This document shows, in pieces, positions 26,132-39,547 of a stretch of DNA of 64,000 nucleotides. A model generated the notes under the pieces. That model ran no database searches. It was not told the origin of the DNA and saw only the letters and a program-made list of their open reading frames with translations. The number at the start of each line of letters is the position of its first letter. The first letter of the stretch is position 1. Made by a program: the position numbers and the translations under genes. Source of the DNA: Escherichia coli (lineage in GTDB: Bacteria; Pseudomonadota; Gammaproteobacteria; Enterobacterales; Enterobacteriaceae); assembly GCF_029227855.1 (NCBI RefSeq), contig NZ_CP074356.1; one strand, given 5' to 3'.

Positions 26132-28795
26132 TCAGAACTTATATTTCAGGCCCACCATCACTGCGGTGTCATTGTAGCCATTATCACCCAGCTGCACGCC
26201 CACATTACCCCAGACGCTGGCCGCCGGATTCAGATTGCCATTTACGCCAAGTTTAATTTCCCCCAGATTACGCGCCCCGTCTTGTTCAACTTTCACACCG
26301 TTCATTGAGACAGCAAAATCTTTACTGTTATGGATCCAGTTCATTTCAACAAAAGGTTCAAAGTCGTCACCGTGCGGACCGCTGTTTTTCTCCTGAGTAC
26401 GAATAAAGGTACGGAAGCCGAGTCGGGTCTGGATGTTGTTATTTGCGTCATTCTCAATACGTGAGCCATTGGCTTCCGTGTGCGCATTATGATCGACGCC
26501 CATCCAGATAGCCTGTGCCTGTGGCTGGAAGATCCACGTATATTTCGCCGCTTCCAGACCAAAGGATTTATTCAGGGCAAAACCGTAACCCGCTTCCAGC
26601 GAGACGGTTGCACCTTTCGCGCTATAGGATTCATAGGCTAACTCATCCCCTTTCACCGAGTTTTTAAACCAGCTATATTGCGCCCAGGCGTCAATGTATG
26701 CGCCTTTTTTACTGATGTCATCGGCAAACCAGGTGGCATACAGCCCTGCGCTATAGCCTCTGACACTCCCTTTCGAACGATAATCCGACACGCTGGAATG
26801 AGTTGAGTTGTAGTCGCGGGCATAACCAGCCATCACTCCCAAACGCCAACTGTCACTGTCGGTAAAACCACCGGTTAACAGATCGGCCCCTAACTGTGAG
26901 ACGTAGCGATGCGAGGTCGTTCTCAACTGTCCGTTGCTGTCACGCCAGGCATTATGCCCGCCAATTTGACGTAGCCAAAGTCGGCTTGAACGCTCCTGTT
27001 CAGTTACAGGATCGATGTAACGCGTTTCACCTGCACGGTCGTTCAGACGCATAACAAAAAGAGTGTTAGCGGCTGCCAGGTTGGCGACGTAACTTCCAGC
27101 TTCGGGGCGCAGAACGGGGGTAGGCGTTTCTGTTGATTCTGAATTTCCCTCTGAGCTGTTATCCTCCTCATTCACTGACTGATAACTTGTCAAATACCAG
27201 TTTTTGCCTTGTTGTTTTAGTTGATATTCGAAAGCTCCAGCTGCAATCCTTGCATCACCTTGTCTGAAGGCATCTGCTGGAGATTCATCGCCATTCACAG
27301 TTATGAGTTCGATCCCATTTAGCGTGGCCGCGCCGCTTCCTCCAGCATTTTTCACATAGACGGTAGTTGAACCCGAAGTATTGCCCTCAACAATAAGTCT
27401 GTCAGTAGCCGATTTATCATCACCTAATACGGTGCGGGTATTAAGCTGACCATTATTACCGACATAATTACCTTTTACGGTTAACGTTTTTCCCTGGGTA
27501 AATGTTTGACCATCATCATACGAAAGATTGATAATACTGTCTGAATTAGTCAGATGGATAACAACGGAGTCATCTTTCATATTCCAGATTGTGTTTTCTG
27601 AAAGCTTCAGTGTAGTTGTGCCGCTAACGAGTTTAGTCGCTCCATTTAGAGTAGAGTCGGACGAAATTATGTTTAAGCCACCTCCAGTATTATTAACCAG
27701 AATATTATTACCAGGCGTGATAATACTTCGATTAAGGATGCTTACATCCGTTGTAGTTTTGTTAACATCAATACTATCCAAAGCACTTGAAAGTTCGACA
27801 CTTGATAGTGCTATTTTGGCTTGAGAATCGATATTTGATGCATCAATTGATATTCCTTTATCTTGTTCTGATACCGCGGTGACATTGGAAAAAAATAACT
27901 CTCCACCATTGTATATTTTTGCAATGGGGGCTTTAGTGCCTTTTGTTGTAATAGAACTATTTTTTATATCAATGTTACCTTGTCGAATAGCAACTGCATA
28001 ACTTCCATGCTCCCCGGTTTCAAGTGCCACATAATCTAAATTAATATATGCTTTTTCCCCATTAGCATAAGCACCATAGCTATTAGTGCCATTAGTTGTT
28101 ATGGAACCACCATTCATTTTTAAATCAGCACGGCTAATAACTTCGTAACTGTTAGAATCACTAACTTCATCATCTACAGCATCGACACATGTTCGAGACT
28201 CTCCAGAACTTGAACATGCAAGAACACCTACTGCATTTTCCCCATAGGTAACAATGTTCGTTTTATCTGTGGTTTCAAGACGGGTGTTATTTTCCACAAT
28301 CCCAGAATCATTAACCTGACTTAAAAGTCCCGCTGAATATGCCCCCCTCGTCTCGACTGAATTATCACCATTCATAACGATGGTGCCACCAAATTCACTG
28401 ACTACTGCGCTGGCTGTTATCCCTCCATTAACATCTTGGTTATTTCCTTTGTCAGATACGCTTCCAGAGGTCTTAATACCGCTATCGCTTATATATAATA
28501 CTTTGTTATGACTATCAACAGAAATACCATAAGATCCATCACCACTAGTCATCACACTGGCATTATTTATATATCCAGTTACACCGTCATCCACTTTCAC
28601 AGCATGGCTTTCGTCTTTAGTGGTTAGATACTCTCCATTACTTATCGAATTATTATCTTTGATTTCAATCGGCGATTCTTCATCAGTTATATAGGAAAGT
28701 ATACTATAATCATCCAACAATTGTGTTGCATATGCATTACCCACCGCCAAAGCAATAAGTCCTAAACTAAACCCGGGGAGTTTTTTCAGTTTCAT
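26132..28795 (-). CDS. ycgH: type Va autotransporter, apparently intact (counterpart of the K-12 ycgH pseudogene by position)
   Basis: 887-aa ORF with signal peptide MKLKKLPGFSLGLIALAVGNAYA and terminal beta-barrel ending ...VGLKYKF; located between ymgD and ymgF. Confidence 0.8.
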   Translation of the reverse strand: MKLKKLPGFSLGLIALAVGNAYATQLLDDYSILSYITDEESPIEIKDNNSISNGEYLTTKDESHAVKVDDGVTGYINNASVMTSGDGSYGISVDSHNKVLYISDSGIKTSGSVSDKGNNQDVNGGITASAVVSEFGGTIVMNGDNSVETRGAYSAGLLSQVNDSGIVENNTRLETTDKTNIVTYGENAVGVLACSSSGESRTCVDAVDDEVSDSNSYEVISRADLKMNGGSITTNGTNSYGAYANGEKAYINLDYVALETGEHGSYAVAIRQGNIDIKNSSITTKGTKAPIAKIYNGGELFFSNVTAVSEQDKGISIDASNIDSQAKIALSSVELSSALDSIDVNKTTTDVSILNRSIITPGNNILVNNTGGGLNIISSDSTLNGATKLVSGTTTLKLSENTIWNMKDDSVVIHLTNSDSIINLSYDDGQTFTQGKTLTVKGNYVGNNGQLNTRTVLGDDKSATDRLIVEGNTSGSTTVYVKNAGGSGAATLNGIELITVNGDESPADAFRQGDARIAAGAFEYQLKQQGKNWYLTSYQSVNEEDNSSEGNSESTETPTPVLRPEAGSYVANLAAANTLFVMRLNDRAGETRYIDPVTEQERSSRLWLRQIGGHNAWRDSNGQLRTTSHRYVSQLGADLLTGGFTDSDSWRLGVMAGYARDYNSTHSSVSDYRSKGSVRGYSAGLYATWFADDISKKGAYIDAWAQYSWFKNSVKGDELAYESYSAKGATVSLEAGYGFALNKSFGLEAAKYTWIFQPQAQAIWMGVDHNAHTEANGSRIENDANNNIQTRLGFRTFIRTQEKNSGPHGDDFEPFVEMNWIHNSKDFAVSMNGVKVEQDGARNLGEIKLGVNGNLNPAASVWGNVGVQLGDNGYNDTAVMVGLKYKF

Positions 28796-35959: not shown

Positions 35960-37210
35960 TTACATGTTCTTGATGATCGCATCACCAAACTCTGAACATT
36001 TCAGCAGTTTAGCGCCATCCATCAGACGCTCGAAGTCATAGGTTACAGTCTTGGCGTTGATTGCGCCTTCCATACCTTTAACAATCAGGTCTGCGGCTTC
36101 AGTCCAGCCCATATGGCGCAGCATCATCTCAGCGGAGAGAATAATAGAGCCTGGGTTTACTTTGTCCTGACCGGCATATTTCGGCGCAGTACCGTGGGTG
36201 GCTTCAAACAGGGCGCATTCGTCACCGATGTTTGCGCCTGGGGCGATACCGATACCGCCGACCTGTGCAGCCAGAGCGTCAGAAATGTAGTCACCGTTCA
36301 GGTTCATACAGGCGATAACATCATATTCAGCCGGACGCAGCAGGATCTGTTGCAGGAATGCGTCAGCAATCACGTCTTTAATGACGATCTCTTTGCCGGT
36401 ATTCGGGTTTTTAACTTTCATCCACGGGCCGCCGTCGATCAGTTCACCGCCAAACTCTTCACGCGCCAGCTGGTAGCCCCAGTCTTTAAACGCGCCTTCG
36501 GTGAACTTCATGATGTTGCCTTTGTGCACCAGGGTCACAGAGTCACGATCGTTAGCAATTGCGTATTCGATCGCTGCACGAACCAGACGTTTGGTGCCTT
36601 CTTCCGAACACGGCTTAATACCGATACCGCAATGTTCCGGGAAGCGAATTTTCTTCACGCCCATCTCTTCACGCAGGAATTTAATCACTTTCTCGGCGTC
36701 GGCAGAGTCAGCTTTCCATTCGATACCCGCATAAATGTCTTCCGAGTTTTCACGGAAGATAACCATATCGGTCAGTTCAGGATGTTTAACCGGGCTTGGG
36801 GTGCCCTGATAGTAACGTACCGGACGCAGGCAGATGTAGAGATCCAGTTCCTGGCGCAGGGCAACGTTCAGAGAACGAATACCGCCACCAACCGGAGTGG
36901 TCAGAGGGCCTTTAATGGCAACGCGATATTCACGAATCAGATCAAGGGTTTCAGCAGGCAGCCAGACATCCTGACCATAAACCTGTGTGGATTTTTCACC
37001 GGTGTAAATTTCCATCCAGGAGATTTTACGCTCGCCTTTATAGGCTTTCTCGACTGCAGCGTCGACCACTTTCAGCATGGCTGGGGTTACATCTACACCG
37101 ATTCCATCACCTTCAATGTAAGGGATAATCGGATTTTCAGGAACGTTGAGTTTGCCGTTTTGCAGGGTGATCTTCTTGCCTTGTGCCGGAACAACTACTT
37201 TACTTTCCAT
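35960..37210 (-). CDS. icd: NADP-dependent isocitrate dehydrogenase
   Basis: 416-aa [48 protein letters not shown]...; 3' end abuts ycgX with no prophage. Confidence 0.96.
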
Positions 37211-37381
37211 TCACCTCTCCTTCGAGCGCTACTGGTTTGCTCGTCTGCCACCACGTTGCATATGCGTTTGCGTCCTGCGATACGGATGCATTAGAGCAAT
37301 TTTTTGTTAATGATTTGTAATTGGCTTGTCAATACTACCCTATTGTTTGCCGTCATGAAAGATGCGCGTTATTAGGCTATA

Positions 37382-37432
37382 ATGCGGCAATTCATAATCT
37401 CTGAAAATACCATGCAAAAAACTTCTTTTAGA
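37382..37432 (+). pseudogene. displaced original 5' end of rluE (first ~17 codons, [17 protein letters not shown]) separated from the gene body by a ~1.5 kb insert
   Basis: ATG 171 bp from the divergent icd start encodes [16 protein letters not shown], which I recall as the K-12 RluE N-terminus; after the 11-bp repeat cttcttttaga the frame runs into unrelated sequence and stops. Confidence 0.6.
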
Positions 37433-37671
37433 CCAAAGACAGTATTTTTCAGACCTTCAAATAAGGCATTAAATATCAATAAGTTATACCGGTTTTTAAG
37501 CAATAAAAAAAACCACCAGAGATAACTAACAGGATGCTATTTGGTCAAAATTTGACATTACTCGACTCAGCGACTATCTCACTTTGAGCACTATTGGGAA
37601 AATTATCAAAAGTCATGGTTGAAGCGACAAGCAACGAGTAAATTATGGCATCCCCCCTTTTTGAGGTTCAC

Positions 37672-37758
37672 ATGAAACGCTTTGCACTGATAGCTGTGAA
37701 ACTCGTTGCCTTTACTGGTTCTGCATCTGCTGCAACCGAAGAAATCAACTTCAAGTAA
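37672..37758 (+). CDS. possible 28-aa small protein with signal-peptide-like/hydrophobic N-terminus (MKRFALIAVKLVAFTGSASAATEEINFK)
   Basis: Not in the ORF track (too short); strong RBS gagg 5 nt before the ATG; perfect TTGACA -35-like hexamer at 37552..37557 upstream. Confidence 0.3.
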   Translation: MKRFALIAVKLVAFTGSASAATEEINFK

Positions 37759-37791
37759 CAGAAACACTATATAACAATGGAGTGTTGACAA

Positions 37792-38241
37792 ATGGATACT
37801 ACCGAAGAACGCAATGGAACATATTTCTACAGAGGACACCCTAACCTGTCCAAAATAGAACTACTCAACGTCATATTCCTTGAAGAATTCTGTAAGGAAT
37901 TGGGGATTGATTCGGTATCAGGTGCAGCAATCTTATCTGGTCAACCGTGGCTGGGTACAAGAGCGAAGCCGCAAGGGGCAACCCTGGGAACAAGTGTTGT
38001 CTCAAAGTATGCGCGTATACTGATGAGAGATGCACGCATGCCTTTTGGTATTTCTGTTCATACACCAGTGGGTGTAAGGATGCAGAAATCTAATAAGCTT
38101 GCTGCAATTATCGCTCGTTGGGTCCCGTGGATTGGTTGGGCTTCACTGTCGATGAGTCTTTACAGGCTTTCGACTCGTACCCAGGAAAAATACAATCTGA
38201 TTGCCAAACCTCAAGACCGTATTAAGTGGACTTCCTTCTAA
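37792..38241 (+). CDS. hypothetical 149-aa protein, cargo gene A of the rluE insert (candidate toxin-like partner)
   Basis: ORF with ggag RBS-like motif upstream; stop codon overlaps the start of the next ORF (TAATG); no recognisable family from sequence alone. Confidence 0.6.
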   Translation: MDTTEERNGTYFYRGHPNLSKIELLNVIFLEEFCKELGIDSVSGAAILSGQPWLGTRAKPQGATLGTSVVSKYARILMRDARMPFGISVHTPVGVRMQKSNKLAAIIARWVPWIGWASLSMSLYRLSTRTQEKYNLIAKPQDRIKWTSF

Positions 38242-38576
38242 TGGCGACAACAATCACAGACGAAGTTTTAGCACTGTTCCGTGATGAGATTCCAGGTTAT
38301 CAGGATGACCACGGGAAGGAAATTCCGTTAGAACTGGACTCTGATTTGTTCGACTATCCACGAGATGATTTAGAGGACGCTATACGGAAATACAAAGAGA
38401 GGTTTGGGATTAACCTGGATAATCTGGACTGGTCTTTGTACCTTCCATGGGAGTCTGCACCATTGCTTCAACGATGGTTCAAGCTCAAGCGGGAAGAGGT
38501 AGAAACAACACGTTTACCGTTAACTGTACGGATGTTTGCAGAATCAGCAGAAGCGGGAAAATGGCTGTATCAGTAG
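38241..38576 (+). CDS. hypothetical acidic 111-aa protein, cargo gene B of the rluE insert (ACP-like/DUF1493-like by recollection; candidate immunity/antitoxin-like partner)
   Basis: ATG overlaps the stop of gene A by 1 nt (translational coupling); acidic composition, no signal peptide, motif LELDSDLFDYPRDDLEDAI reminiscent of the ACP fold. Confidence 0.6.
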   Translation: MATTITDEVLALFRDEIPGYQDDHGKEIPLELDSDLFDYPRDDLEDAIRKYKERFGINLDNLDWSLYLPWESAPLLQRWFKLKREEVETTRLPLTVRMFAESAEAGKWLYQ

Positions 38577-38908
38577 AATAAAAAAGAAGGCTGCGATGCC
38601 CCTCTTATTACTGCTGATGATGGTAGTGGTAAAGCATCATCCTGAACTTGAACAGTGAAGTGCTGTCACCCATCAGTAATACAGAAACACTATTTTTCAT
38701 ACCAGTATTTATTCAATTCATCAATGTAAAATGTGTTCATTGGGCCATATTTCTCACCATGCAGCCACACAACCGCTGCTCACTAACCCAGGTATTGATG
38801 AAACCGCGCTGAAGAGCCTGAACCCTGAACCTCTAACGAGTACCTTAAAAGTCCAATGCAATCCGACACTGTGCTACCCTCTGCGTATAGCTCTATTTGG
38901 AATTTACC

Positions 38909-39547
38909 ATGAAATACTTTAGCGATTCTAAATCTTCTTTTAGAAAAAAACAGGTTAGTCGACTAAACTCGCAACACTCCACTAAGCGTAAACCTGAAAA
39001 TCAGCCCACGCGCGTGATCCTGTTCAATAAACCCTACGATGTTCTTCCGCAGTTCACCGATGAAGCCGGACGCAAAACATTAAAAGAATTCATCCCGGTT
39101 CAGGGCGTTTATGCAGCAGGTCGTCTTGACCGCGATAGCGAAGGGTTACTGGTGCTGACCAATAACGGCGCGTTGCAGGCGCGTTTAACCCAGCCGGGTA
39201 AACGCACCGGAAAAATCTATTATGTGCAGGTGGAAGGTATTCCCACACAAGACGCACTTGAAGCCTTGCGCAATGGCGTAACCTTAAATGATGGCCCTAC
39301 CCTGCCCGCAGGCGTAGAGCTGGTTGACGAACCCGCGTGGTTATGGCCGCGGAATCCACCAATTCGTGAACGCAAAAGTATTCCCACCAGCTGGCTGAAG
39401 ATCACCTTATATGAAGGACGTAATCGCCAGGTGCGCCGCATGACCGCCCATGTTGGTTTCCCCACGCTGCGACTGATTCGCTATGCGATGGGTGATTACT
39501 CTTTGGATAATCTTGCCAACGGCGAATGGCGAGAAGCGACAGATTAA
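38909..39547 (+). CDS. rluE: 23S rRNA pseudouridine(2457) synthase RluE with variant N-terminus
   Basis: From ...[61 protein letters not shown] onward matches RluE as recalled; first ~27 residues ([28 protein letters not shown]) are a diverged version of the displaced fragment; start could also be the TTG at 38897. Confidence 0.85.

Follow-up and report, generated by a model that had tools for sequence, protein, structure and literature searches.

A recombinase-less islet in the 5' end of Escherichia coli rluE, probably the decayed remnant of a large serine recombinase island family

The rRNA-modification gene rluE is interrupted close to its start by a 1,476-bp insert in the Escherichia coli genome considered here (RefSeq assembly GCF_029227855.1). 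We analysed a stretch of 64,000 nucleotides of contig NZ_CP074356.1, hereafter the window, in which rluE is intact again behind the insert with a new N-terminus. We consider it probable (roughly 80%) that this islet is the decayed remnant of a family of islands that insert site-specifically at rluE by means of a large serine recombinase (LSR). The family has apparently not been described so far, and full-text literature searches returned nothing on rluE as an attachment (att) site. Features of the window are collected in Table 1.

An earlier note, made from the letters of the window alone, had proposed that a small island entered the 5' coding region of rluE, and elements at the identical position in E. 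coli, Enterobacter cancerogenus and Citrobacter bear this out. As that note reported, an ATG lies 171 bp from the start of icd, at 37382, and its reading frame enters unrelated sequence and meets a stop at 37525. Its statement on the N-terminus of RluE in K-12, encoded by an uninterrupted gene directly opposite icd, proved accurate for MG1655. When aligned to MG1655, a check that the note had suggested, positions 37300-37432 are 100% identical, perfect through the end of the first copy of an 11-mer (CTTCTTTTAGA). The insert follows directly after the 51-bp remnant of the native 5' end. On the right, similarity resumes at about 38986, and rluE from 38989 to its stop is 97.9% identical to K-12. 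The 11-mer, which had been noticed at both junctions, is confined to positions 37422 and 38934 when both strands of the window are searched; by chance, a particular 11-mer would turn up about 0.03 times. The repeat extends beyond it, with 15 of 16 bases shared between AAAACTTCTTTTAGA and AAATCTTCTTTTAGA. The insert is indeed richer in AT than its surroundings (GC 0.34-0.48, against 0.50-0.55 in the flanks). An Rfam scan of 37100-39100 gave no match.

Related elements occupy the same site in other hosts. A few Citrobacter-type RluE homologues have replaced N-termini (MSNARKYSSDSKTSFR, MRYYNDSKSSFR and MSNARKYYNDSKTSFR), all of which end exactly at SFR, the residues that correspond to the 11-mer, and are followed by native Citrobacter sequence. 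The contigs that encode these variants have islands between icd and rluE. In one Citrobacter locus (L025), the gene for an LSR of 555 aa begins 39 nt upstream of the surrogate start codon of rluE and diverges from it. In another (L019), the LSR gene is reduced to 56 codons by an IS110 insertion sequence (IS). A Citrobacter-like metagenome contig (L023) has no recombinase, and its cargo consists of a small secreted-protein gene, hcp, an STM2901-family gene and a DUF1493 gene. When the LSR was used as query, Enterobacter cancerogenus (L027/L028) proved to have a copy with 94% identity and draft assemblies of E. coli (L030-L032) one with 65%, in each case at the same position beside a variant rluE. 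The LSR-bearing elements that fill the icd-rluE gap measure 6.7 and 7.8-7.9 kb, and their recombinases (555-557 aa) are encoded 39-51 nt from the surrogate start and divergently from it. The E. coli-type protein (P0126) matches the Resolvase (E 9e-14), Recombinase (E 9e-14) and Zn_ribbon_recom (E 1e-5) domains, and the same three domains are present in the Enterobacter-type protein (P0124) and in the LSR of L025. At the N-terminus stands GYMRYSS or AYMRYSS, in keeping with the YxRxS active site of serine recombinases.

The junctions are built alike wherever the site is occupied. On the left, attL consists of the native rluE 5' end, AAAACTTCTTTTAGA and a conserved element end that reads nAAAT(C/G)ATAGTATTTT after the core (CCAAAGACAGTATTTT in the window). 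On the right, attR consists of a start codon and a few further codons from the element, then (A/T/G)CTTCTTTTAGA, and then rluE. Right of the attR core, rluE is native to the host in L030, L027/L028, L019, L025 and L023, and the flanks are host-specific. L030 allows empty and occupied sites to be compared within one species: the left part of attL, the core and the right part of attR, joined together, differ from K-12 at 1 of 91 nt. By its logic, the same arithmetic applies to the Citrobacter and Enterobacter hosts. The surrogate N-terminus in L030, MQSKTSFR, nearly copies the native MQKTSFR. In the window, the attL half matches K-12 exactly and the right half of attR is foreign.

We also reconstructed attP for four elements, including that of the window. 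In all of them the same TT lies at the centre of the best dyad, which has imperfect arms (AAATACT/AGTATTT) and complementary bases at 14-18 of 28 positions, and attP and attB have a core of 15 nt in common. The distance from AAATACT to the core is 15-16 nt in attP and 10 nt in attB, and this offset of ~5 nt may be comparable to the known offset of the zinc-ribbon motif between attP and attB. Because the junctions recur, the attP dyads share one TT and the LSR has the expected domains, we read the 11-mer, on sequence grounds, as the att core of a serine-integrase system. It would then be neither a target-site duplication nor the chance similarity that the earlier note had named as a possible refutation; the repeat is conserved across hosts. 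Insertion of an IS or transposon with target-site duplication was considered and rejected, as there is no transposase, there are no terminal inverted repeats and the same rluE repeat is used in every host.

The window islet is a remnant of such an LSR element without a functional recombinase of its own. All LSR homologues tested align by their first ~40 residues at 38869-38764, across one frameshift (for example, VSDCIGLLRYSLEVQGSGSS with MSIAIGYMRYSSAAQGSGST and ALQRGFINTWVSEQRLCG with ARQRDRIQKWVDEQRKDG), and among shuffled versions of the insert any match at E<=0.01 arose in 1 of 100. The catalytic motif YxRYSS has decayed to LLRYSL. This ghost ends 39 nt from the rluE ATG, in the spacing and orientation of the intact genes in L025 and L027. 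Given the ghost, an integrase must once have been present; the statement of the earlier note that there is none is right for an intact gene and overlooks these 40 frameshifted codons. At the other end of the islet, a small open reading frame (37645-37758) is the start of the gene for a secreted protein of 116/117 aa in L027/L028 and L019, and the homology ends at 37770.

Table 1. Features of the rluE islet and its flanks (positions in the window)
Feature	Position	Strand	Basis and remarks
icd	35960..37210	-	Divergent neighbour of rluE; intact; no e14-type prophage at the icd 3' end
Native rluE promoter-like site, ATGAAA-17 nt-TATAAT	37355..37383	+	Consensus match only, 10/12
Native E. coli rluE 5' remnant, 51 bp (attL B arm)	37382..37432	+	Alignment to K-12
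attL core AAAACTTCTTTTAGA	37418..37432	.	Predicted crossover at TT of AC-TT-CT
Conserved left element end (P' arm CCAAAGACAGTATTTT...)	37433..37731	+	Matches the left ends of L019 and L023 at 75-77% identity, from the core on
Truncated left-end gene	37645..37770	+	First ~37 codons: signal peptide and ATEEINFK, stop, QKHY
STM2901-family gene, 149 aa, probable Hcp-dependent type VI effector	37792..38241	+	NCBIfam NF045926, 154 bits; Pfam DUF8209 (precomputed)
DUF1493 gene, 111 aa, probable cognate immunity protein	38241..38576	+	Pfam E 1e-29
Spacer without detectable relative, holds the second ACAGAAACACTAT copy	38577..38763	.	Sequence searches
LSR gene ghost, 40 codons	38764..38869	-	Codons 1-20 and 22-39, one frameshift, start codon lost
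Right element end (P arm) with surrogate rluE start	38806..38933	+	ATG 38909, codons MKYFSDSKS; right 100 bp 90% identical to the right end of L023
rluE, reconstituted and intact, 212 aa	38909..39547	+	RefSeq annotation, E. coli JNEC-KY178 (identical genome); new N-terminus
attR core AAATCTTCTTTTAGA	38930..38944	.	Sequence comparison
Non-E. coli-type rluE stretch, ~40 bp	38945..38985	+	13 differences from K-12

In the scenario that we favour, intact islands of 6.7-7.9 kb would integrate when the LSR recombines attP with a fixed attB in the first codons of rluE, with strand exchange predicted at the TT. A start codon would come from the right arm of the element, along with 3-12 surrogate codons that close with (K)(S/T)SFR, so that full-length RluE could still be made, and the native promoter and first codons would be stranded at attL. 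The lineage of the window would later have been stripped of almost the whole LSR gene, most of the left-end secreted-protein gene and any hcp. With its recombinase lost, the islet would now move only by homologous recombination of its flanks.

Such recombination is the best explanation for the ~40-bp foreign tract right of the second core. After a serine-integrase crossover the sequence right of the core is that of the host, and this tract is not of the E. coli, Citrobacter or Enterobacter type and is perfectly linked to the islet in E. coli. Since the sequence right of the core is foreign, the attR of the window was not formed in a K-12-like E. coli, and we rejected simple Campbell integration in E. 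coli for this copy. The earlier note had supposed that the island brought its own homologous 5' end, which holds for the first 12 codons, to SFR, and not for the diverged stretch after the core, which we attribute to the rluE of another host. We infer that the tract is the scar of this earlier host, where the element would have integrated before it was imported into Escherichia. The left crossover of the import would lie in a run of 33 bases identical between E. coli and Citrobacter that adjoins the core, and the right crossover at about 38986. Alternatively, the right part of a resident E. coli element could have been replaced by a related incoming element, which would fit equally well. A metagenome scan for the native empty site (ACTTCTTTTAGAAAAAAACAGG) gave one chance match, in an unrelated M23-peptidase-like gene.

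Transfer by the flanks is shown directly by a further locus, L026. Its host is a Citrobacter, in which mnmA-purB is 94.5% identical to Citrobacter loci, against 88.6% for icd and 78% for the rluE body when compared with E. coli. In the same locus the intergenic region, the 5' remnant, the islet and the next ~100 bp of rluE (to ~39043) are 94-100% E. coli-like. An E. coli islet has crossed genera here by homologous recombination in icd and rluE, together with donor flank. The shared right-hand boundary was also considered as a second site-specific junction; this was rejected because the E. coli-like tract of L026 continues to ~39043. L026 has in addition an extra gene of 312 aa between rluE and nudJ (7473-8411), with a signal peptide and no Pfam match, which is unrelated to the 312-aa cargo gene of L027 described below.

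The earlier note had also suggested scoring the insert across the pangenome. It is carried by 373-374 of 5,426 complete E. coli genomes, IAI39 among them, with 97.5-100% identity and always between icd and rluE; the remaining genomes have the K-12 arrangement. As many genomes as have the insert, 374, have the variant rluE 5' end together with its ~40-bp diverged tract. In Escherichia sp. E1V33 the architecture and junctions are identical in kind, and the islet is 93-98% and the rluE body 91% identical to the window. A plasmid origin of the insert was rejected, as the only plasmid matches are chromosome pieces deposited as plasmids. In PLSDB these mislabelled records are CP125156.1 (L003, a 5.37-Mb Klebsiella record), NZ_LN868944.1 (L004, a 728-kb Salmonella piece with pathogenicity island 1 of Salmonella, SPI-1) and CP088590.1 (L018, a 175-kb E. 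coli piece with icd-purB). A phage origin of the insert was likewise rejected, the best phage matches to the LSR being YbcK-like proteins no better than 26% identical.

Two other histories of the islet have to be weighed against that of a decayed LSR island. The insert could stem from a one-off illegitimate recombination, anchored by homology in the rluE body and helped by chance microhomology on the left, in which case the 11-mer would be a conserved part of homologous ends. Homologous recombination in rluE did happen, judging by the foreign sequence that extends ~40 bp right of the second 11-mer, and the window has no intact recombinase. However, a single accident does not account for identical junctions in at least four host backgrounds with different cargo and with flanks host-specific up to the core, nor for conserved element ends that begin exactly at the core and have an LSR gene at the right end. 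The LSR ghost within the window and the attP dyads centred on the same dinucleotide also argue against it, and we regard this origin as very unlikely. We give even less credit to the idea that the interrupted form is ancestral in Escherichia and that the K-12 form arose by deletion between the repeats. The divergence of the E1V33 islet is about that of core genes (93-98% versus 91-96%) and is compatible with long residence and an old polymorphism. Yet a deletion would fuse the native 5' end to the foreign tract, and no complete E. coli genome has the tract beyond the islet carriers. Citrobacter, Salmonella, Enterobacter and Kluyvera have a contiguous native ...MQKTSFRNH..., and the duplicated 5' end and the recombinase ghost are marks of insertion.

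A number of results weigh against the LSR-island origin as well. The 5,426 complete E. coli genomes are free of both LSR types, the E. coli example coming from draft assemblies only, and there is no intact recombinase gene in the window, so that for this copy the mechanism is historical. The tract right of the core is not derivable from a simple LSR crossover in E. coli, and among the 120 best matches no RluE outside the islet carriers has the diverged stretch that would mark its donor. No empty site bearing the foreign tract, as expected of an excision product, and no circular form was found in complete E. coli genomes. Moreover, attB has no clear dyad, and a promoter scan gave no convincing sigma-70 match before the new rluE start.

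A more ambitious version of the LSR-island origin starts from the two att sites that the islet retains and would make it a non-autonomous hitchhiker that is mobilised in trans by the LSR of intact relatives (of the L030/L027 type). It would then belong to an unrecognised LSR system that captures a host promoter for its cargo and has a conserved attB in E. coli rluE. We think this improbable; if true, it would provide a new serine-integrase/landing-pad pair and make STM2901/DUF1493 a new type VI secretion effector/immunity family.

How rluE is expressed behind the islet can be considered from the features that remain. The native promoter-like site is stranded at attL and is now directed into the islet, the genes of which are all co-oriented with rluE; no plus-strand terminator was detected in the islet. 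Because this promoter is retained, the genes are co-oriented, no terminator was found and no good new promoter is apparent, it is reasonable to suggest that rluE transcripts would arise by read-through from the captured native promoter across the cargo. A weak promoter in the right arm may be an alternative source. The promoter-like site also bears on the true start of the gene in K-12. Its -10 box TATAAT (37378-37383) overlaps the ATG annotated in K-12, at 37382, and for many Citrobacter RluE proteins the annotation begins at the second ATG (MQKTSFR). Given these two observations, the true start may be the second ATG (37412), with the first 10 annotated codons an untranslated leader. If so, the att core is located at codons 3-7.

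The cargo of the window islet consists of an STM2901-family gene and a DUF1493 gene, which, judging by the genes found beside their relatives, probably encode an effector of type VI secretion with its immunity protein, or else represent an orphan immunity locus. The neighbourhoods that we compared come from 12 loci with close relatives, obtained by scanning a single genome for each species, to which a locus of Klebsiella, one of Salmonella and a metagenome contig were added. Outside Escherichia, 11 of 14 loci have an hcp gene whose end precedes the start of the STM2901-family gene by 9-17 nt, and DUF1493 comes directly after the latter. This hcp/STM2901/DUF1493 triad is not tied to one genus or to one place in the chromosome: it occurs in Klebsiella, Enterobacter, Lelliottia, Erwinia and Pantoea and in L023, in the last of these at rluE itself. 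The proteins of the window and L023 are 45% (STM2901-family) and 40% (DUF1493) identical. We favour the type VI reading because hcp belongs to the conserved triad, the first protein is small and the two members of the pair have diverged fast and together. A small putative effector (149-155 aa) fits cargo carried within the Hcp lumen. The triad adjoins mutS in Klebsiella and Erwinia. The Salmonella pair sits beside SPI-1 without an adjoining hcp, at what we take to be the site equivalent to that of the mutS-adjacent triad.

In two E. coli loci, IAI39 (L005, 4332-6094) and D17EC0246 (L018, 6361-8458), an IS3-family element splits the STM2901-family gene and DUF1493 is intact, a pattern that is expected where an immunity gene is retained after effector loss. 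Other findings count against the effector/immunity role. There is no hcp in the window copy or in any E. coli-type islet, and no known toxin domain was found in the pair. Sequence searches of the PDB for solved relatives of the STM2901-family protein were empty, and its AlphaFold2 model is poor (predicted local distance difference test, pLDDT, 58.8) and unfit for a fold search. No role of DUF1493, STM2901 or DUF8209 in type VI secretion was found in the searchable literature, the few papers on STM2901 and DUF1493 being judged by title and abstract.

The pair could instead be another two-gene system, for example a toxin-antitoxin or phage defence system, with the linkage to hcp reflecting shared island hot spots. 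We see this as possible though clearly the lesser prospect. It would accommodate the loci where hcp is not beside the pair (E. coli, Salmonella by SPI-1, and L009/L011), a DUF1493 protein that has neither a signal peptide nor a known immunity fold, and the other cargo of related LSR elements, which includes a PADLOC candidate defence gene. It is harder to reconcile with an hcp placed so closely upstream at most loci outside Escherichia, in several genera and at varied sites. PADLOC has no match for the cargo pair, the divergence of the L023 allele suggests the rapid co-divergence that is typical of polymorphic toxin/immunity pairs, and the IS3-family elements disrupt the putative effector and spare DUF1493.

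The cassette is bracketed by an exact 13-bp direct repeat, ACAGAAACACTAT, at 37758-37770 and 38681-38693, for which we estimate a chance expectation of ~0.04 per 1.9 kb. Its first copy sits exactly at the end of the homology to the left-end gene, and the cassette may have entered the island backbone in a secondary insertion that left the repeat behind. A cassette junction common to the window and L023 was not found, the second small gene of L023 being a different, pseudogenised paralogue. L023 has two tandem small genes here (7516-8570) with a common signal peptide (MKRFPL...), one an intact gene of 120 aa and the other the pseudogene, and L019 has a small-gene pair of 120 and 117 aa. These left-end genes look like a paralogous family of secreted proteins.

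The intact elements have other cargo. In L030 (11893-17290) it comprises genes for a 455-aa protein, a 65-aa sigma-70 region-4-like protein, a 324-aa protein, a small resolvase (209 aa) and a 345-aa protein, the last of which matches the PADLOC candidate defence family PDC-S64 (E 2e-42). L027 (11668-16312) and L025 have a conserved pair of 358 and 312 aa without family matches.

Among known systems, the family resembles in mechanism the staphylococcal cassette chromosome elements (SCCmec/SCC). These use the large serine recombinases CcrAB/CcrC to insert at a fixed site in the end of rlmH/orfX, which stays intact, and recombinase-less remnants and composite arrays are common among them. The rluE-site islands, too, appear to be inserted by an LSR at one site within the end of an rRNA-modification gene that is left intact. 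The best NCBIfam matches of their LSR are CcrA/CcrB, weakly so (E 1e-7, far under the curated cut-off), and the recombinases are remotely related. However, SCC elements target the rlmH 3' end in Gram-positives, whereas the rluE family targets a 5' end in Enterobacteriaceae; an element that targets the 5' end of rluE has to bring along a start codon and a signal for expression upstream.

The neighbour of rluE, icd, is the target of e14 and phage 21, which likewise carry a diverged gene end that keeps the target functional. They differ in being prophages with a tyrosine integrase that insert at a 3' end, whereas the rluE elements are 7-kb islands with a serine recombinase that insert at a 5' end. 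The window insert lies inside rluE, on the other side of icd, and has no tyrosine integrase. Directly after icd the window has ymgL/ycgX/bluR and no prophage. Prophages with tyrosine integrases are present at the icd 3' end in K-12 (e14; L002, 3710 onward), in IAI39 (L005, 1246-2385) and in L030 (19144-20286). Both outer ends of the divergent icd/rluE pair are integration hot spots. SPbeta (spsM), skin (sigK) and A118 (comK) are serine-integrase insertions in coding sequence with a short core and a central dinucleotide, and the gene is restored on their excision; those elements split their gene, whereas the rluE elements repair it with a surrogate 5' end. Like cis-mobilizable elements (CIMEs) and other decayed integrative elements, the window islet keeps both att sites and its cargo and has lost the recombinase, but its right B' arm is now foreign. 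It may also be compared with orphan hcp-effector-immunity islands: its cargo pair follows hcp in relatives, and the window copy has no hcp.

Elsewhere in the window, RefSeq annotates a leucine-rich-repeat protein gene beside cvrA (3065-4501), a copy of IS200C between ycgB and fadR (9023-9481) and a ycgH pseudogene with an internal stop (26132-28795).

From the perspective of genome evolution, the islet accounts for a presence/absence polymorphism at a core gene for ribosome modification, seen in ~7% of complete E. coli genomes, and it illustrates how the remnant of a mobile element can cross genus boundaries purely by the homology of its flanks. Repair of the target at its 5' end rather than at the usual 3' end means that these elements must provide or borrow the expression signals of a gene in an essential pathway. 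Serine integrases native to Enterobacteriaceae are scarce and are wanted as genome-engineering tools. The rluE-site islands define an attB/attP pair and two recombinase types (65% identical to each other) of what would be a serine-integrase family native to Enterobacteriaceae, and their cargo ties the STM2901/DUF1493 pair to hcp and hence, probably, to type VI competition.

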